DNA of 30,820 bases from Deltaproteobacteria bacterium (lineage in GTDB: Bacteria > Desulfobacterota > Dissulfuribacteria > Dissulfuribacterales > QOAL01), in contig JAMOUE010000310.1 of NCBI GenBank assembly GCA_027068235.1, positions 1-30,820 of the forward strand, given 5' to 3'. Positions 1-7,840 of the stretch are shown piece by piece; position 1 is the first letter of the stretch, and the number at the start of each line of letters is the position of its first letter. The notes under the pieces were generated by a model. The model was not told the origin of the DNA. It worked only from the letters and a program-made list of their open reading frames with translations, and did not search any database. Both the position numbers and the translations under genes were made by a program.

Positions 1-2340
1 AACAAGATAAAACAAAGAATCTTCTGGGTAACAGCCATCTTCGCCACGTATGCCGGCCTTTTTACCTGTAAGGATTTCCACACCTTCTTCAACACGCTCT
101 ATCGACCAGATATGAAACTTGCCGTCTCTAACTGCCTCAATTACCTCTTGTTTCAAGTTGAGATCCCGTACATTGGCCTTGGGAATGATAACACCTTGTG
201 TGGTTGTAAGACCCCTTGCCTTACAAAGATCAAAGAAACCCTCAATCTTTGCACTAACTCCTCCAACAGGCAGTATTTCCCCTTTCTGGCTTACAGCACC
301 AGTACACGCCACATCTTGACGTAAAGGAACATCTGAAAGTGCTGACAAAAGTCCAAACAGCTCGGCCCCTGATGCAGAGTCACCGTCTACCATTCCGTAA
401 CTTTGTTCAAAACAGATGGTAGCTGTGAGGCTTAGAGGTTTGTCTTGGGCAAACATCTGCCTTAGATATCCAGAAAGAATCATTACACCTTTTGTATGGA
501 TCTTTCCGCTTAATTCTGCCTCTCTTTCAATATTGACGATTCCATCCTTACCAAGGCAGACATTTACTGTGATCCTGCTAGGTTTGCCAAATACAAAATC
601 CCCAAGATCATACACGGCAAGCCCATTAACTTGACCTACTGCACTACCATCTGTAGCAACTTTGATTACATCCTTGACCAAAAGCTCCTGTAGATGCTCT
701 TGATAAAGGCTTGAACGATAGCGCCTTTCATCAATGGCCTGCTGCACATACTTGGCAGTTATATAAGAACTACCTGCCTTGGTTGCCCAAAAATTTGCCT
801 CAACTGCAAGGTCTTCTATGTCTGTTATCTTGAGGGTTAGTTTCTCTCTGGAATCAGCAAGTTCTGCAGCAAACTCCAAGAAACGGACTGCACCTGTCCT
901 GTCAATATCCAAAAGGTTGTTCTTTTTTCTAATGGATGCAAGGAGCCTGAAAAATTCCCGTTGGCGCTCAAGATTATTATCTGTTCTGGTATCTAGGTGT
1001 GACTTGATCTTGAACAGCTCCCTAAAATCCTCATCAAAGTTGTAAAGTAGCTGATAAAGATAGGGCTCTCCCATCAATACTATCTTGACGTCAAGCCTTA
1101 CAGGCTCTGGCTTGAGGCTTTTGGTAGTAAAAAGGCCATACTGTTCACCAGGGTCTTCTATCTCAAGTTTTCCTGTTTTTAGAGCCCTTTTAAGGGCCTC
1201 ATATGAAAAGGGCCTTTTTAATAGATCTGAGACCTTTAATAGAAGGTATCCGCCATTTGCCTTGTGAAGCGCACCGGCTTTTATCATGGTAAAATCTGTA
1301 AAAAGCGCACCAAACTGTGCCTGGCGTTCTATCACACCGAAAAGATTTGGATAACTTGGATTTGCTTCAAAAATTACAGGCTTTGCCTCTGTCTCTGAAT
1401 TATCCACAAGTACATTCACATCATATCTGGCAAAATTCGGTCCAGCGCCTGGTACAGGAAACGGCATTCCTGGAGGAGGCGTATTCTTTGAAGGCAAAAA
1501 ATCCTGAAAATGGATTACAACATCTTCAAGTACATTGTCGAAATAAACCTGTAGCCTAGAATATGAAGAATATTTCTCCTTTAATGGCTCAATCAGCATC
1601 TGTGCAGTCTGACGCGCCACCTGCCTGTCGAGCTCTTTGAGTTTCTGCTGCACCTCCTGCTCGAGTTGATGAACCTGACGCATGGCAGCACCCATCTCTC
1701 TATGGAGCTCTTCACTACGCTTTTTTAAGTCGTCCTGTTGTTCCTGGGGCATCTTGGAGATCTCTTCAGGTGGCAATGGGCTGCCATCCTCCTTGGCAGG
1801 TATGACCATCATACCAGTTGGATCTGCCTGAAGCATAAAGCCCTTTCCCTTTACCTTTTTATCAAGCTCTTCAAATATCTCTGTGCGCCTCTTGTTGAAC
1901 TCCCGTATTACCTCCTCTTTTCTGACAAGGTACGTCTCTCCTTCAAAACTCTTTGGCATATGAAGCTGAAGGTTATCAACGAGCTCGGCCATATCCTTTT
2001 TGAGCTGCATACCTAAACCGGGCTCCAAGAGGATGGCTAAAGGGACATCTGGGTCCTGAAAATTGTGGATGTAGCAGATGTCTTTTGGCCTATCTCCATT
2101 TCTAGCAGCAAGTTTTTCAAGCTTAGATATTGTCAACTCCAGGGCGCCAGCCTCCTGAAGTCCAGCTACAAAGACGTTGAAGCCAGGATTTTCTATCTCT
2201 AACCCTACATCAAGGGCCCTTTCCGCCCGTTCCTGTCCATAAATAGCAAGACTTTCATCCTCCAATTGGCTCAAATATTCAAATTCAAGACTATCTGGCT
2301 CTATATTTAACCGAAGCTTGTCAGGAGTCAGCTTTTCCAC
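1..2340 (-). CDS. Lon-like (COG1067/LonC-type) protease, 3' end beyond the window
   Basis: Not in the ORF track. Manual translation from GTG at 2340 (SD-like GAGGTG upstream, 12 bp after the ruvB stop) gave an open frame to position 1: MEKLTPDKLRL...GQERAERAL...FEANPSYPNLFG...GALHKANGGYL...VGQVNGLAVY...DGDSAS (370-384)...PVGGVSAKIEG. Lon Ser-Lys dyad motifs are present. Confidence 0.92.
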   Translation of the reverse strand, partial: MEKLTPDKLRLNIEPDSLEFEYLSQLEDESLAIYGQERAERALDVGLEIENPGFNVFVAGLQEAGALELTISKLEKLAARNGDRPKDICYIHNFQDPDVPLAILLEPGLGMQLKKDMAELVDNLQLHMPKSFEGETYLVRKEEVIREFNKRRTEIFEELDKKVKGKGFMLQADPTGMMVIPAKEDGSPLPPEEISKMPQEQQDDLKKRSEELHREMGAAMRQVHQLEQEVQQKLKELDRQVARQTAQMLIEPLKEKYSSYSRLQVYFDNVLEDVVIHFQDFLPSKNTPPPGMPFPVPGAGPNFARYDVNVLVDNSETEAKPVIFEANPSYPNLFGVIERQAQFGALFTDFTMIKAGALHKANGGYLLLKVSDLLKRPFSYEALKRALKTGKLEIEDPGEQYGLFTTKSLKPEPVRLDVKIVLMGEPYLYQLLYNFDEDFRELFKIKSHLDTRTDNNLERQREFFRLLASIRKKNNLLDIDRTGAVRFLEFAAELADSREKLTLKITDIEDLAVEANFWATKAGSSYITAKYVQQAIDERRYRSSLYQEHLQELLVKDVIKVATDGSAVGQVNGLAVYDLGDFVFGKPSRITVNVCLGKDGIVNIEREAELSGKIHTKGVMILSGYLRQMFAQDKPLSLTATICFEQSYGMVDGDSASGAELFGLLSALSDVPLRQDVACTGAVSQKGEILPVGGVSAKIEGFFDLCKARGLTTTQGVIIPKANVRDLNLKQEVIEAVRDGKFHIWSIERVEEGVEILTGKKAGIRGEDGCYPEDSLFYLV

Positions 2341-2352
2341 TTCTTCTCACCT

Positions 2353-3384
2353 CTATCTCTTTAATCCAAGGTGCGTATAGGCCTTGTCAGTAGCCATCCT
2401 GCCCCTTGGAGTTCTATGCAAAAAACCTTCCTGGACCAAAAAAGGCTCGTAAACCTCCTCAATCGTTCCGCTTTCCTCTCCTACCGATACCGCAATGGTA
2501 TCTAGCCCCACAGGGCCACCATCGAACCTTTTTATTATGATTGAAAGGATCTGTCTATCCATCCCATCAAGACCCTTTTCATCAACATCCAACATAGTTA
2601 GGGCATTATCAGCAACATCTTTTGTTATTACACCATGGGCCTTTATCTCTGCAAAATCCCTAACCCTTCTAAGAAGTCTATTGGCTATCCTTGGAGTACC
2701 CCTTGATCGCCTGGCAATCTCTTTAGCCCCTTCTTCATCTATGGCAATACCCAGTACAGATGCAGAACGACTTACAATCTCCTGAAGTTGATCAACAGTA
2801 TAAAAATCAACCCTTAAAAGTACACCAAACCTGTCTCGCAATGGTGGAGACAAAAGACCAGCCCTTGTAGTAGCACCAACCATAGTAAAACGTGGGAGAT
2901 CTATCTTGATCGTTCTTGCACTTGGGCCTTGACCAATAATCAGATCTAGCTGGAAGTCCTCCATGGCTGGATAAAGAATCTCCTCTACAGATGGACTCAA
3001 TCGGTGGATTTCATCTATGAAGAGGACCTCTCCTGGCTGAAGATTGGTCAAAATGGCTGCCAAATCTCCAGGTCTTTCTATCACAGGGCCAGATGTGCAT
3101 CTTATGCCCACACCAAGCTCTTTTGCTATAATGTGCGCCAAAGTAGTTTTGCCAAGCCCAGGGTGACCATGCAGCAAACAATGATCTAGAGGCTCTTTCC
3201 TGCGCCTTGCAGCCTCGATAAAAAGGGCAAGGCCCTTTTTTAACTCTTCTTGGCCAACATATTCAGAAAGACTCTGGGGTCTCAAGGTTGGCTCTGCAAC
3301 TAGATCATCTTTAAGACATACAGGGGATATGGAAGACCTTTCTTCTTCCAAGGAAGATGGCTGGCTAATCTTCTTATATTCCAT
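2353..3384 (-). CDS. ruvB: Holliday junction branch migration helicase RuvB
   Basis: [12 protein letters not shown], Walker [10 protein letters not shown], Walker [34 protein letters not shown]. Confidence 0.99.
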
Positions 3385-3390
3385 AATACC

Positions 3391-4014
3391 TTATCTCACC
3401 TTAGAAAGTAGCTGCAAAGCCCTTGTTATCACCTGATCCAACCCAATATTACCTTCTTTAGACAAAATTTCAGCAGTTACTCGTTTGGCCTCATTTGGCT
3501 TGTATCCAAGATTCACCAGGGCGGATATTGCATCGTCTGCCAAGACGCTACCACCCTCGTCCGGAGATGAAGATTCCATCTCGGATGAATCCATACCCTC
3601 CTTGGCAAGTATCTTTGCCGCCTTTTCCTTTAGATCAACACAAATACGAGCCGCAGTTTTTTTGCCAACTCCATGAACTGAGCGTATTCGTGCAGTATCT
3701 CCCTTGGCTATATCAGCAATCAGTTCCTCTGGGGAAAGCACCGACAATACGTTTAAGGCCAGCTTTGGCCCCACTCCCGAGACCTCAAGAAGCACCCTAA
3801 ATGCCATCAACGCCTTTTTTTCAAGGAACCCATATAAATTGATCTGATCGTCTCTTATGATAAGATTGGTATAAATCTGGACTGTATTTCCTGCCTGCGG
3901 AAGCCTAGATAAAAATGAAGATGGCATCTCTATTAGATAGCCCACTCCGCCAACATCAAGAAGAACCGCACCTTCCCAAATGTCTACAACGGTTCCCTTC
4001 AGATAACCTATCAC
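3391..4014 (-). CDS. ruvA: Holliday junction branch migration protein RuvA
   Basis: MIGYLKG, LLDVGGVGY, LYGF, VSGVGPKLAL, GVGKKTAARI, ALVNLGY; lies between ruvC and ruvB; GTG start. Confidence 0.98.
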   Translation of the reverse strand: MIGYLKGTVVDIWEGAVLLDVGGVGYLIEMPSSFLSRLPQAGNTVQIYTNLIIRDDQINLYGFLEKKALMAFRVLLEVSGVGPKLALNVLSVLSPEELIADIAKGDTARIRSVHGVGKKTAARICVDLKEKAAKILAKEGMDSSEMESSSPDEGGSVLADDAISALVNLGYKPNEAKRVTAEILSKEGNIGLDQVITRALQLLSKVR

Positions 4015-4051: not shown

Positions 4052-4561
4052 CTAACCAAGTTCAAGTTTGATAAGGTCTTGCACCTTTGTTGATTGCACA
4101 TGACAAAGGGCTACTGCCAGCGCATCAGAGGCATCTTGCGGTGGCGGCTTGGCAAGACCAAGGATTAGGGTAACCATCTCCTGGACTTGATGCTTCTCTG
4201 CACGTCCATAACCCACAACTGCCCTTTTCACCTCAAGGGCAGAATACTCAAAAATTTCAAGATCGTTGTTTATGGCTGCCATCAACAGTGCCGCCCTGGC
4301 ATGACCTAACTTCAAGGCAGCTCCTGCATTTCTCGCAACAAAAACCTGTTCAAATGCTGCACAAACAGGAGAAAACTCTGCTATCACCCGACAAAGACTC
4401 TCATAGAGGTGTTTGAGCCTGTCTGGGAAACTCCTCTTAGGACTTGTCCTTATAACCCCGGCCCCAAGAACATTTATGCGCCCATTCTTAGTCTGCTCTA
4501 TCACTCCATAGCCTGTAGCCATGGAGCCGGGATCAACTCCAAGAACGGGCCCAATTGTCAT
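4052..4561 (-). CDS. ruvC: Crossover junction endodeoxyribonuclease RuvC
   Basis: GVDPGSMATGYGV, FEQVF, EVKRAVVGYGRAEKHQVQEMV, DASDALAVA. Confidence 0.98.
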   Translation of the reverse strand: MTIGPVLGVDPGSMATGYGVIEQTKNGRINVLGAGVIRTSPKRSFPDRLKHLYESLCRVIAEFSPVCAAFEQVFVARNAGAALKLGHARAALLMAAINNDLEIFEYSALEVKRAVVGYGRAEKHQVQEMVTLILGLAKPPPQDASDALAVALCHVQSTKVQDLIKLELG

Positions 4562-4563
4562 GG

Positions 4564-5313
4564 TCAGGCTACCTTTTCAAGTATTTCGTCTGGAATATCA
4601 AAGTTTGCATATACGTTTTGGACGTCGTCGTTTTCCTCAAGGGCATTCATAAGGGCAATGAGCTGCTGGGCCTTTTTCTCATCATCTACCTTCACTATAT
4701 TAGAAGGCACCATTGTAACCTTTGCAGAAAGTATCTCTATACCCTTGTCTGCAAGGGCCTTTTTGACCTTGGAAAGATCTTCTGCAGACGTCTCTATTTC
4801 CCATTCACTTCCTGCATCTTGAATATCCTCTGCCTCTGCCTCAAGAGCAGCCGCCATAAGGGTATCTTCGTCTACTTTGTCCTTTTCAACAACGATTAAC
4901 CCCTTCTTTTCAAAAATCCATGCAACACTGCCTGGCTCTCCAAGACTGCCTCCCCTTTTGGCAAAAATGTGGCGTACCTCGGCAACTGTACGCTGGCGGT
5001 TATCGGTAATTGTTTCAACCAAAACCGCCACTCCGCCTGGCCCATAACCTTCGTAAGTCACCTCTTCGTAGGAAACACCTTCAAGTTCTCCTGTACCCTT
5101 TTTAATGGCCCTTTCAATGTTGTTTTTTGGCATATTGGCAGCCTTAGCAGACTCGATGGCTGCCCTTAGTCGCGGATTGGCAGCAGGATCACCACCGCCA
5201 AGCCTTGCAGCTACTGTAATCTCCTTTATGAGTTTGGTAAAAATCTTGCCTCTTTTGGCATCTTGAGCAGCCTTTTTATGTTTAATGGTGCTCCACTTTG
5301 AGTGTCCAGACAT
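4564..5313 (-). CDS. yebC: YebC/PmpR family protein
   Basis: [52 protein letters not shown]; typical position upstream of ruvC. Confidence 0.98.
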
Positions 5314-5407: not shown

Positions 5408-6778
5408 CTAAAATCTTCTTACACGTTCATAGAATGACTGAAGATCCTTTTTGATAAACTTCTCCACCTTTGCAAGGTTTCTCTTGTGTCTCACCCAGAT
5501 CTGACGCCTTGCATCCCTTTCAAGCAGATCAAGTACTTTTGAGCGTACCCGTTGCCACAGATCTCTTTCATAGGCGGAATCAAGCTTTACTAGAGAATCA
5601 AGGTTGGTGGTACAATATTTTACAAACCGTGGAAATGTAAACTTTTGGAAATATACAGAGCCTCCAGCCACAACCAAAAGGAGCCAGATTAATGGCCAAA
5701 GAAAGTTATTGAAGGAGAGAGTACCTGTAGCCAAAGAAAGGATAAACGGCTCTGACGGATAACCTGTAAGGAGATTCATGGCCAGATCGCCCAACAAAAA
5801 AGCCAAAATACCAGTGATGCCAAGGGACCTTAGAAAAGCTTTCATCCTTTTTAAAAAAAGCTCCTTAAAGCGCTTCATTGCTTTAATAACCAGTGCAAGT
5901 TCCCTGGCCGCTTTGTCAACCTCCTGTATCATGTGGAAAAGACGCATACGCGGCGCCCCTAAGATAGCCTTTTTAAGCTCCTGCCTCTCCTTCTCCCACA
6001 CCTCAAATTCCTTTGGTATTGCCTTGCCTGGTATCTTTGCATAGGTGAGATAAATACGAGGGATATCTTTTCTACCAGTCATCTGAGACAGATTCCAACA
6101 AAGAGTTCCATAAGCCCGAACAAGATCTTCCACGTTCTCACACTCATCGATCCTGTTCATAACAAAAAGTACCCTGTCTTCATCAGATGAGGCCGGCAGT
6201 GTAGTACGCAAGGCCTTGTAAGTTTCCTTTATGGTTCCTGCCTTATGAGGATCAAACATAAGGACAATGAGATCAGCAAGCCTTGCAAGTTCACCTATGA
6301 CCCCGAGGAAATCATAACCCCTATCCTGCTCTGTTACAGAATCGAGCATTCCAGGCGTATCAATAATGGCTATATCCTTTAGTTTTTCACATTGGATCTT
6401 TTTCATAACCAGATGAGACAAGAGCTTTTCCCCAAACCTTCTCAAACTGCCAAAAGGCAGGGTCTCATCTGCAACCAGAGTGCTTCCTAGTATGTCACCG
6501 GGGCTTTCTTCTTCAGAAGGTGCAGTGATTATCGTAAAACTATCATCAGTTGGCGCCTGACCTGTTCTTTGAATATCCTTCTCTATGAATTCATTTATAA
6601 AAGTGGATTTTCCTGATGAATAATTGCCAATTATAAGAACAATGGGCTTCCACTTGAGAGGCGTCAAAAGCTCTTCCATATTGAAGCCATAGCACTCAAA
6701 CACACCGGATAGCTTCTTAGGAAGTATCTTTTCTATTTTTGCCTTGAGATCCTTGGCATCTTTCATGGAGGCTTCCAT
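5408..6778 (-). CDS. Dynamin-superfamily P-loop NTPase, EHD/sarcalumenin-like, with C-terminal hydrophobic segments
   Basis: GNYSSGKS (6605-6628), TGQAPTDDSF, IIDTPG, FDPHKAG, NRID, LVRAYGTLCWNL; two hydrophobic stretches (LGITGILAFLLGDLAM, FLWPLIWLLLVVAGGSVYF); SD AGGAG before ATG 6778. Confidence 0.85.
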   Translation of the reverse strand: MEASMKDAKDLKAKIEKILPKKLSGVFECYGFNMEELLTPLKWKPIVLIIGNYSSGKSTFINEFIEKDIQRTGQAPTDDSFTIITAPSEEESPGDILGSTLVADETLPFGSLRRFGEKLLSHLVMKKIQCEKLKDIAIIDTPGMLDSVTEQDRGYDFLGVIGELARLADLIVLMFDPHKAGTIKETYKALRTTLPASSDEDRVLFVMNRIDECENVEDLVRAYGTLCWNLSQMTGRKDIPRIYLTYAKIPGKAIPKEFEVWEKERQELKKAILGAPRMRLFHMIQEVDKAARELALVIKAMKRFKELFLKRMKAFLRSLGITGILAFLLGDLAMNLLTGYPSEPFILSLATGTLSFNNFLWPLIWLLLVVAGGSVYFQKFTFPRFVKYCTTNLDSLVKLDSAYERDLWQRVRSKVLDLLERDARRQIWVRHKRNLAKVEKFIKKDLQSFYERVRRF

Positions 6779-6894
6779 GTCTTGGCTCCTAATTAAAAAA
6801 TAGATTTAATCCATAAATAGATATGTAAAGTCGCCTTTTATCATGAAAGGCGATCAAGGTGCAATGAAGATTCTGGCTTCTCCCACAAATATCA

Positions 6895-6932
6895 TATGTA
6901 TCTATTAAATCTTTATGTATCTATTAAATCTT
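6895..6932. repeat. Exact 19-bp tandem duplication TATGTATCTATTAAATCTT x2
   Basis: Read directly: copies at 6895-6913 and 6914-6932, in a divergent intergenic region. Confidence 0.95.
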
Positions 6933-6951
6933 TGTGTTATTTATTGGGTAA

Positions 6952-7542
6952 ATGAAAGACTCTTTTAACAAATCCATGAGACCTAAAAGGGTAAATTGTA
7001 TTGGATTTGATGATGCTCCTTTTGAAAAAGAGCATAAAGGTAGGGTTTCTATAGTAGGCACTGTCTATGCAGCCCACAGGCTTGATGGTGTCCTAATAGG
7101 GCATGTCCAGAAGGACGGAACAGACGCTGCTTCACAAATTATAGAGCTGGTTGGCCATTCCAGATTCCATGAACATTGTAATCTAATAATGCTACAGGGC
7201 ATCTGTCTTGGCGGTTTTAATGTAATAGATGCCAAAAAGATATATAAGGCACTTAAGCGTCCAATACTTATCGTTTCTAGAAAAGAGCCAAATTATCCTG
7301 CCATTAAAAATGCACTTTTGACCAAGATCCCAGATGGCAAAAAGAAGTGGGAAATAATACAGAATCTTGGTGAGATGGAACCTTGTTGCAGATGTTATGT
7401 GCAAAGGGTTGGGCTAGATCGAATGGAGACAGAAAAAATCATCAATTTTTTCTGCATAAATGGAAACATACCCGAACCCCTTCGCACGGCACATCTGATA
7501 GCTGGGGCATTGGGTAGAGGTATGAGTAAGGGGCGTGTTTAA
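6952..7542 (+). CDS. DUF99 (endonuclease V-like) family protein
   Basis: IGFDDAPF, DGTDA, MLQGICLGGFNVID, NIPEPLRTAHLIA. Confidence 0.88.
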   Translation: MKDSFNKSMRPKRVNCIGFDDAPFEKEHKGRVSIVGTVYAAHRLDGVLIGHVQKDGTDAASQIIELVGHSRFHEHCNLIMLQGICLGGFNVIDAKKIYKALKRPILIVSRKEPNYPAIKNALLTKIPDGKKKWEIIQNLGEMEPCCRCYVQRVGLDRMETEKIINFFCINGNIPEPLRTAHLIAGALGRGMSKGRV

Positions 7543-7558
7543 AGATTAGATAAATATT

Positions 7559-7840
7559 TTAATTCAACATTCTTTCTTCTTTTTTAATCTCTTTTAACTT
7601 TTTCTTATAATACTTTATACACTGCTTAATAAATTTTTTCTGACCCCGTTTCGATGCAAGGTTATCACGATCTACAGGTGCATCCCAGCACGCAAGTAAT
7701 ACCAACCTCATGGGCATATTCATGTCCATAAGACAGTTTATCTTACTTTCATAATACTCTTTCTGAACCTGTAGCCTTATCCGCTTGTTTTTTGTTACAG
7801 GAGTAACCGGTAACTTTCTTTTAGCAGTAGCAAGATTCAT
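7559..7840 (-). CDS. Small basic hypothetical protein (93 aa)
   Basis: Fills the gap between DUF99 and HDOD; SD GAGGTG before ATG; correctly spaced sigma-54 motif 42 bp upstream; no family recognised. Confidence 0.7.
   Translation of the reverse strand: MNLATAKRKLPVTPVTKNKRIRLQVQKEYYESKINCLMDMNMPMRLVLLACWDAPVDRDNLASKRGQKKFIKQCIKYYKKKLKEIKKEERMLN

Follow-up and report, generated by a model that had tools for sequence, protein, structure and literature searches.

The stretch of DNA examined here, referred to below as the window, comprises 30,820 nucleotides (positions 1 to 30,820 of contig JAMOUE010000310.1, assembly GCA_027068235.1) of a Deltaproteobacteria bacterium of the sulfate-reducer type, with the source being a 2.38-Mb metagenome-assembled genome (MAG) that is 91% complete and derived from a hydrothermal-vent metagenome. 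Based on the listing and translation of open reading frames (ORFs), a single ORF of 456 amino acids (aa) fills positions 5408-6778 on the minus strand. We consider it likely that this ORF encodes a stand-alone nucleoside triphosphatase (NTPase) of the dynamin superfamily that belongs to a bacterial clade sister to EHD and sarcalumenin, within which it would represent a Thermodesulfobacteriota subfamily sister to MfnL, and that is anchored to the membrane by a hydrophobic hairpin. A preliminary description, prepared from the sequence without database searches, had proposed an EHD-like protein on the basis of a series of short motifs. All of the quoted motifs were found in the ORF translation and in the same order, including: (i) GNYSSGKS (residues 51-58), TGQAPTDDSF (72-81), DTPG (140-143), FDPHK (175-179), and NRID (208-211); and (ii) LVRAYGTLCWNL (219-230) and PRIY (240-243), followed by a helical region and then two hydrophobic segments. 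The EHD motifs given there for comparison matched both a residue-level alignment to mouse EHD2 and the consensus of 12 true EHDs.

Sequence searches were found to favor the EHDs over all other dynamins. While Pfam detected only Dynamin_N (PF00350; E-value 1.6e-13, 51.4 bits vs a cut-off of 27, profile positions 1-167 of 168), the G motifs of the dynamin superfamily were identified as GNYSSGKST (G1), T77 (G2), DTPG (G3), and NRID (G4), placing the protein in this superfamily. When PDB sequences were searched by phmmer, EHD2 (9e-38) and EHD4 (1e-35) were matched over residues 41-295, with no further dynamin detected at E ≤ 1; the G-domain identity to EHD2 was ~33% over ~255 residues. A family profile (A1) built from 28 members matched EHD2 at 2e-44, with the alignment extending over profile positions 8-348, compared with 6e-6 for the Campylobacter dynamin-like protein (DLP) and the non-significant values of 0.04 for SynDLP and 0.4 for mitofusin. 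By hhalign, profile A1 was aligned with the EHDs at 99.96% probability (E 4e-39) over residues 10-278 of the window protein (hidden Markov model [HMM] columns 18-286), a region that corresponds to the N-terminal helix and G domain. The NCBIfam models for LeoA and DynA returned 13.6 bits (cut-off 325) and 10.3 bits (cut-off 1600), respectively, and BLASTP against classical DLPs of the same phylum, which are 560-860 aa in length, gave an E-value of 1e-3 only. Derived motifs common to the window protein and EHDs and missing in classical DLPs included the RGYDF insertion, FDPxK, RxYGxLxWN/SL, and the PF loop. At the level of primary sequence, the similarity to EHD is far above chance. No match to an EH domain (PF12763) or EF-hand was found by Pfam at E ≤ 1, in agreement with the preliminary description of a protein lacking an EH domain; the polypeptide stops 78 residues past the hairpin, and PF12763 was present in all of the true EHDs fetched. 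The Pfam families EHD_N (PF16880) and DUF5600 (PF18150) were likewise without a match at E ≤ 1.

The fold predicted by AlphaFold2 (AF2; mean predicted local distance difference test [pLDDT] score of 82.6, predicted template modelling score of 0.76) was compared with solved and modelled structures. Foldseek analysis against the PDB placed EHD4 and EHD2 on top (5.6e-17 to 5e-14), with mitofusin and BDLP next at ~5e-9, and against the Swiss-Prot models the best 19 matches were all EHD1-4, plant EHDs, or sarcalumenin (query residues 5-455), with FZL, DynA, and CrfC 6-7 orders of magnitude below. VIA-align gave a similar ranking, with a Z-score of 28.1 for EHD4 (5mvf; root mean square deviation 4.6 Å, 362 of 375 target residues, model residues 6-456 vs chain residues 19-403), 23-24 for EHD2, and then 20 for mitofusin-1 (MFN1). 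At the N-terminus, the family profile was aligned from its position 8 to EHD2 residue 19, and the VIA-align range began at model residue 6. At the C-terminus, helices were predicted at residues 356-391, 402-427, and 431-455 (pLDDT ~90), and the VIA-align and Foldseek alignments reached model residue 455-456 vs EHD residues 399-403. The model holds the whole EHD G domain as well as the composite helical domain; a predicted fold without the EHD helical domain, which would have spoken against the EHD-like proposal, was not obtained.

Relatives of the window protein were found to be numerous, with at least 1978 at 90% clustering, while the 50% representative library yielded 1600 matches at E ≤ 1e-3, of which 176 reached E ≤ 1e-30. 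Two subfamilies were prominent among the bacterial members: (i) G1 (GNYSSGKS and NR[IV]DEC), which includes the window protein and was detected in at least 542 species genomes of Thermodesulfobacteriota, among them those of the cultured Dissulfurirhabdus thermomarina and Dissulfuribacter thermophilus; and (ii) G2 (GNHSSGKS and NK[VA]Dx[FL]), with at least 530 species genomes from Planctomycetota, Verrucomicrobiota, Chromatiaceae, Rhodobacterales, and Kuenenia, among them the type strains of Halochromatium and Rhabdochromatium. Long G2-like sequences were eukaryotic. One of these, TRSC58_06192, is the Trypanosoma rangeli MfnL of the preprint that characterises MfnL experimentally as TbMfnL, the mitochondrial protein Tb927.7.2410 of Trypanosoma brucei, and that lists bacterial homologues (bioRxiv 10.1101/2023.06.28.546890); therefore, G2 and these eukaryotic sequences were taken together as the MfnL family. 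Eukaryotic EHDs were absent among the top 150 representatives, all of which were bacterial or MfnL-type and without EH, EHD_N, or DUF5600 domains. The EHDs used for comparison were reached by a bridging query. A search for the LeoA family in 121 genomes of the phylum gave no match, with silent controls as well, and the classical-DLP outgroup was picked from Dynamin_N matches.

Phylogenetic analysis was performed with IQ-TREE (LG+C20 with posterior mean site frequencies; 62 rows and 465 columns) and eight classical DLPs from within the phylum served as outgroup to root the tree. Support was 100/100 for the split from classical DLPs, 100/99 for EHD plus sarcalumenin, 100/99 for G1 including the window protein, 100/97 for the eukaryotic MfnL sequences (nested among G2), 89/93 for G2 plus MfnL, and 93/92 for the grouping of G1 with G2 and MfnL; a quick tree of 93 rows was in agreement. 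Thus, as judged from this alignment, the clade of G1 and G2/MfnL is sister to EHD plus sarcalumenin and far from classical DLPs. The window protein was positioned outside of the clade of TbMfnL and its homologues from Proteobacteria and the Planctomycetes-Verrucomicrobia-Chlamydiae (PVC) group, as sister to this clade and not within it, and the motif signatures differ too. Because of the long outgroup branch, rooting within the EHD-like assemblage is tentative, as is any direction of transfer deduced from it. Taken with the HMM searches and fold comparison, the tree supports the earlier proposal that the protein is EHD-like and not of the BDLP, DynA, LeoA, or CrfC type, as it did not fall within ordinary DLP or CrfC clades. 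This affinity holds, but the closest studied relative by phylogeny is the MfnL family (TbMfnL) and not EHD itself. Nor is the window subfamily the bacterial group that is most EHD-like (profile scores vs EHD2 of 195 bits for G2 and 155 bits for G1).

While examining these relatives, MfnL-type proteins of the dinoflagellate Symbiodinium were found to be labelled 'EHD2' or 'EH domain-containing protein 4' in NCBI though they are without EH domains; this use of 'EHD' labels on proteins of the MfnL clade is an annotation error that blurs two families. A 60%-identical homologue was also detected on a 2.5-kb contig (JAIWFS010000237.1) of a MAG labelled 'archaeon'; given that all other close matches are from Thermodesulfobacteriota, erroneous binning is a likelier explanation than an archaeal copy.

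EHDs form a stable two-fold dimer via a family-specific interface (interface-1) on helix alpha6, which carries a conserved Trp (W238 of EHD2), and higher assembly involves the KPF loop together with the G interface (PMC9741607). The equivalent Trp of the window protein, W228, was aligned with EHD2 W238 and found to be invariant in the 28 family members, as were P108 and F109, which match P and F in the KPF loop. Prediction of a two-copy complex gave a score of 0.46, and the three controls scored 0.00 at best; 20 of 30 solved homodimers attained the mark used for such predictions, as did 1 of 23 monomers. The predicted symmetric interface was at residues 215-261 and centred on the alpha6 helix (216-234), which corresponds to the EHD interface-1. 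This modelling supports a putative EHD-type homodimer formed through alpha6 and its Trp.

The hydrophobic region of the C-terminal half was next compared with the membrane-binding site of EHDs. Kyte-Doolittle (KD) windows of 19 residues at ≥ 1.4 covered residues 312-339 and 352-382, outlining a hairpin of two segments of ~21-22 residues each and an 18-residue polar loop (Y-P-S-E-P...T-G-T-L-S-F-N-N). In the AF2 model, a continuous helix (275-338) leads from the G domain into segment 1, followed by a short loop helix (345-351) and a return helix (356-391). The flanks of the hairpin carry net charges of +6 (residues 290-315) and +10 (residues 381-456). The hydrophobic segments were retained in the 28 family members, in which D331, P341, and P362 are invariant within the Gly-rich hydrophobic block. 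The location of D331 in the middle of segment 1, together with P341 and P362, is unusual for a simple anchor. In the 62-sequence alignment, the region equivalent to residues 296-400 was 90-149 residues in length (mostly 93-109) with a maximum hydropathy of 1.6-2.7 in G1, G2, and eukaryotic MfnL, whereas in EHD and sarcalumenin it was 46-53 residues, i.e., ~50 residues shorter, with a maximum of ~1.0 or less (<1.05). The polybasic stretch is kept at residues 298-313 of the window protein and is followed by the ~65-residue hydrophobic hairpin not found in EHDs. Membranes are bound by EHDs at their helical-domain tip (PMC5084822, PMC9741607), and by HMM alignment EHD2 residues 318-330, which comprise the membrane-inserting loop and polybasic helix, were positioned opposite profile positions 307-319, which correspond to the polybasic stretch together with the beginning of segment 1; therefore, the hairpin occupies the position of the peripheral membrane-binding element of EHDs. 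Hydropathy, the AF2 model, and the alignment comparison thus all predict a hairpin, in line with the two-segment membrane anchor proposed earlier. This two-helix hairpin probably serves as an anchor in the inner membrane, and a cytoplasmic location of both protein ends would fit the basic flanks (positive-inside pattern).

Nucleotide preference was considered in relation to the G4 motif, as the use of ATP by EHD2 has been explained by the Met that follows the G4 Asp (PMC5084822). In the window subfamily, Glu is invariant at this position and the Cys that follows is nearly so, and Arg takes the place of the Lys of NKxD. Among eight true EHDs, the residue after the G4 Asp was found to be S, T, M, Q, A, or G. 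A rule based on Met after G4 to distinguish ATP from GTP was rejected, as the position is variable even among true EHDs; because of this variation, sequence cannot decide between ATP and GTP. The 'GTPase dependence' described for TbMfnL refers to a P-loop K141A mutant in vivo and not to a specificity assay (bioRxiv 10.1101/2023.06.28.546890).

Table 1. Positions in the window of the NTPase gene, its predicted protein features, and the downstream gene array.
Feature	Position	Strand	Basis
EHD/MfnL-type dynamin-superfamily NTPase, complete coding sequence	5408..6778	-	ORF translation; Dynamin_N 1.6e-13; EHD2 9e-38
Shine-Dalgarno AGGAG, 7 nt 5' of ATG at 6778	6786..6790	-	Direct sequence reading
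N-terminal helices, residues 2-42, predicted part of composite helical domain as in EHDs	6653..6775	-	AF2 helices 2-29, 34-42
Extended dynamin/EHD-type G domain, residues 43-275	5954..6652	-	EHD2 alignments, hhalign, clade-wise motif table
P-loop GNYSSGKST	6602-6628	-	Coordinates verified by translation
Switch I QRTGQAPTDD	6542-6571	-	Coordinates verified by translation
LPF, equivalent of EHD KPF loop	6452-6460	-	Coordinates verified by translation
DTPG	6350-6361	-	Coordinates verified by translation
RGYDF	6308-6322	-	Coordinates verified by translation
FDPHK	6242-6256	-	Coordinates verified by translation
G4 motif NRIDEC	6140-6157	-	Coordinates verified by translation
Helix alpha6, residues 216-234, invariant W228, predicted two-fold homodimer interface	6077..6133	-	Complex prediction and EHD2 alignment
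Long stalk helix, residues 276-313 (EHD alpha8 equivalent), polybasic KAMKRFKELFLKRMK at its end before the membrane segment	5840..5953	-	AF2, charge, profile alignment
Hydrophobic hairpin, residues 314-378	5645..5839	-	Hydropathy, invariant residues, alignment length comparison
C-terminal helices, residues 379-456, net charge ~+10, predicted to lead back from the membrane and to form the last part of the EHD-like helical domain	5411..5644	-	AF2, VIA-align, Foldseek
yebC	4564-5313	-	Pfam
ruvC	4052-4561	-	Pfam
ruvA	3391-4014	-	Pfam
ruvB	2353-3384	-	Pfam
LonC/LonB-like AAA+ protease (AAA_32, LonB lid, LonC helical, and Lon_C domains), runs off the window	1-2340	-	Pfam

The distribution and neighborhood of the gene were also examined. 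All 24 genomes examined from the window's own family carried it as a single copy, as did 36 of 41 relatives, and it was present in only 11 of 301 genomes sampled evenly across the phylum. Neither the window nor the 91%-complete genome was found to hold a second full Dynamin_N protein, and a conserved partner gene was not identified either, consistent with the stand-alone status claimed in the preliminary description. Downstream of the EHD-like gene, the order yebC, ruvC, ruvA, ruvB, and LonC-like protease gene (Table 1), the last of which begins 12 nt after ruvB, was kept in most of the fetched loci of ≥ 55% identity with enough downstream sequence. This linkage was missing from 23 loci examined at ~50% identity, with no neighbor common to more than 7 of those loci; the neighborhood is therefore read as inherited, clade-specific synteny. 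The gap to yebC, which has its own Shine-Dalgarno sequence, is 94 nt in the window and ranges from 19 to 384 nt across loci. A canonical terminator was not found in the 94-nt gap (fold z-score -0.9), and co-transcription with the yebC array is possible. Members of the family were also observed in hosts with elaborate intracytoplasmic membranes, including Candidatus Magnetocorallium paracelense (a magnetotactic multicellular member of the Desulfobacterota) and Candidatus Kuenenia stuttgartiensis (an anammox planctomycete), an occurrence that would suit a role at membrane invaginations.

On the other side of the gene, a perfect 19-bp tandem direct repeat (AAAGATTTAATAGATACAT, present twice on the minus strand at window positions 6896-6933) was found in the 173-nt divergent intergenic region that separates the EHD-like gene from an Endo_dU (PF01949) gene (6952-7542, plus strand). 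This repeat could serve as a site bound by a regulator. Between the Endo_dU gene and the gene of an HDOD-HD protein lies a lysine-rich ORF of 93 aa (7559-7840, minus strand) for which no Pfam match was found.

Taken as an EHD-type NTPase with a membrane hairpin, the protein would span or deeply enter the inner membrane by its hairpin, with both ends and the catalytic parts in the cytoplasm. A stable two-fold dimer would form through helix alpha6 (W228), as in EHDs, and these dimers would assemble further, in a nucleotide-dependent manner, via the conserved PF loop and the G interface, such that the oligomer may shape, tether, or stabilise curved inner membrane from its cytoplasmic face. A number of points weigh against this scheme. 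Profile homology to EHDs at the sequence level is significant only for residues 10-278, with the match of the helical domain taken from predicted structure, and the dimer score may partly reflect the memory that the prediction model has of solved EHD dimers. The G4 motif is NRIDEC and not NKxD, and nucleotide handling may differ from that of EHD and MfnL. For the bacterial members, we infer membrane insertion, topology, oligomerisation, and remodelling alike. In addition, an invariant Asp (D331) lies inside segment 1 and the hydropathy is moderate (KD ~1.6-2.0); therefore, the hairpin could be monotopic and not bilayer-spanning. A wedge or paddle of the BDLP or reticulon type, which would enter the cytoplasmic leaflet only and make this a peripheral or monotopic protein that induces curvature, is on balance unlikely yet deserves some weight, as it would account for the moderate hydropathy (maximum of 1.96 for a 19-residue KD window), for D331, prolines 341 and 362, and the Gly-rich block, and would resemble the EHDs, which insert just a loop into the outer leaflet (PMC9741607). 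However, the segments of ~21-22 residues are long enough for a bilayer, the 18-residue loop is polar and includes a short helix, the strongly basic character of the two flanks is consistent with an in-in topology, and TbMfnL behaves as an integral membrane protein that depends on its pair of transmembrane segments.

Other readings of the protein concern its identity and its main role. That it is an ordinary bacterial DLP of the BDLP, DynA, LeoA, CrfC, or IniA type, with its EHD likeness limited to generic G motifs, is scarcely credible. Such an identity would agree with the generic Dynamin_N as the only Pfam assignment and with the mitofusin, BDLP, IniA, DynA, and CrfC entries also listed by Foldseek and VIA-align, which are expected for any member of the dynamin superfamily. 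It is at odds with: (i) the 38-order gap in E-value between EHD and the best classical DLP; (ii) LeoA and DynA scores far under the NCBIfam cut-offs; (iii) EHD-specific motifs and an insertion that are missing in classical DLPs of the same phylum, themselves matched at a BLASTP E-value of 1e-3; and (iv) the 100/100 tree split, the length of 456 aa vs 560-860 aa, and the lack of a paired gene. The E-value gap, motifs, and tree effectively refute it. A membrane-tethered NTPase that works with the products of the yebC-ruvCAB-lonC array, for example in chromosome-dimer or Holliday-junction processing coupled to the membrane or septum, with remodelling not its main role, is very unlikely. CrfC, which is dynamin-like, acts in chromosome partition of E. 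coli and provides a loose analogy, and the same-strand array kept in most loci of ≥ 55% identity and the 94-nt gap devoid of a canonical terminator are compatible with this role; however, the linkage is missing in 23 homologues at ~50% identity, the distance to yebC is variable and yebC has its own Shine-Dalgarno sequence, the protein is without a DNA- or clamp-binding feature, and CrfC is a distant classical DLP. A related and bolder scheme, to which we also give little credence, is that the NRxDEC subfamily is a functionally shifted, membrane-anchored EHD-type NTPase that is encoded within an operon-like yebC-ruvCAB-lonC array and couples late chromosome processing (Holliday-junction resolution) to inner-membrane closure at division, perhaps with a changed nucleotide preference. 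If true, EHD-style filament mechanics would have served bacterial cell-cycle tasks before EHDs existed. The reading as a hairpin-anchored EHD-type NTPase of the inner membrane is the one we retain.

Bacterial relatives of EHD and sarcalumenin with two transmembrane segments were described previously by Schaffer, Iyer, Burroughs, and Aravind (2020, Front Genet 11:34), in one paragraph and a stylised tree with no experiment, and the eukaryotic acquisition was ascribed to 'a proteobacterial lineage' (PMC7016017). Their placement was reproduced here by HMM, fold, and tree, and the two hydrophobic segments are also present in the window protein. The idea of a bacterial EHD relative had thus been stated before our analysis, both in that work (PMC7016017) and in the TbMfnL preprint. 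As such relatives and MfnL are known, the window gene is an additional member and adds no new principle. What is new is that the literatures on 'bacterial EHD/sarcalumenin relatives' (2020) and 'MfnL' (2023-24), neither of which cites the concept of the other, are found by sequence comparison to describe one clade, with the window subfamily as its sister branch. Also new are the definition of a Thermodesulfobacteriota subfamily by NRxDEC, the mapping of the hairpin to the EHD membrane-binding tip, and the predicted conservation of the EHD-specific dimer interface. EHDs are treated as eukaryote-only ATPases, and a 2026 EHD review makes no mention of prokaryotes. Bacterial relatives with an EHD G domain, a dimer helix and helical domain predicted to be of the EHD type, and their own hairpin offer a simpler system for examining how EHD-type filaments shape membranes and at what point the use of ATP arose, with cultured carriers available in Dissulfurirhabdus thermomarina and Dissulfuribacter thermophilus (G1) and in Halochromatium and Rhabdochromatium (MfnL-type).

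Of the known systems, MfnL was found to be closest in architecture, with a G domain, a coiled-coil/helical region, a C-proximal hairpin of two transmembrane segments, and short C-terminal helices, as well as the RGYDF, FDPxK, and YGxLCWNL motifs. BLASTP identity was 33% over 309 aa to the T. rangeli MfnL (E 1.5e-42) and 36% over 431 aa to a bacterial G2 member (E 4e-74). TbMfnL is carbonate-resistant, is released on deletion of its transmembrane segments, faces the matrix, and raises mitochondrial branching, an effect lost on mutation of the P-loop Lys (bioRxiv 10.1101/2023.06.28.546890). The predicted orientation is shared, with the catalytic part on the matrix or cytoplasmic side, as suggested for the window protein by its positive-inside charge pattern. 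The window protein differs from MfnL in having GNYSSGKS and not GNHSSGKS, in having NR[IV]DEC and not NK[VA]Dx[FL], and in being without a mitochondrial targeting sequence; its subfamily is from Thermodesulfobacteriota, whereas MfnL is from PVC bacteria, Proteobacteria, and eukaryotes. The text of the TbMfnL preprint mentions neither EHD nor Desulfo- taxa (bioRxiv 10.1101/2023.06.28.546890).

The comparison extends to the eukaryotic EHDs (EHD1-4/RME-1; 2QPT, 4CID, 5MTV, 5MVF, and 7SOX), which share the G domain, a composite helical domain that is predicted by modelling to form from the N- and C-terminal flanks, the alpha6 Trp, PF, and the tip position of the membrane-contacting element. In contrast to EHDs, the window protein is from a prokaryotic host, is without an EH domain and GPF/NPF regulation, has NRIDEC as its G4 motif, and carries a hydrophobic hairpin in place of the peripheral polybasic helix/loop. 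Sarcalumenin, of the metazoan sarcoplasmic reticulum lumen and with homologues in kinetoplastids and diplonemids, shares a G and helical domain of similar length and has no EH domain (Foldseek TM-scores of 0.63/0.61 over nearly full length; BLASTP 37% over 211 aa to the Trypanosoma cruzi homologue); unlike the window protein, it is luminal, is without the hydrophobic hairpin, the equivalent region spanning ~47-53 residues, and groups with EHD and not with the bacterial clade. More distant are BDLP, DynA, IniA, Cj-DLP1/2, and Mfn/Fzo1, which share a general design of a large G domain, helical bundle, and hydrophobic tip element (PMC5084822). For these classical DLPs and mitofusins, the fold similarity was at Z-scores of 15-20 and the sequence similarity at E-values of 6e-6 or worse; they differ in being without the EHD-specific motifs, longer, and often paired or fused, and in dimerising by the G interface and not by a stable alpha6 contact.

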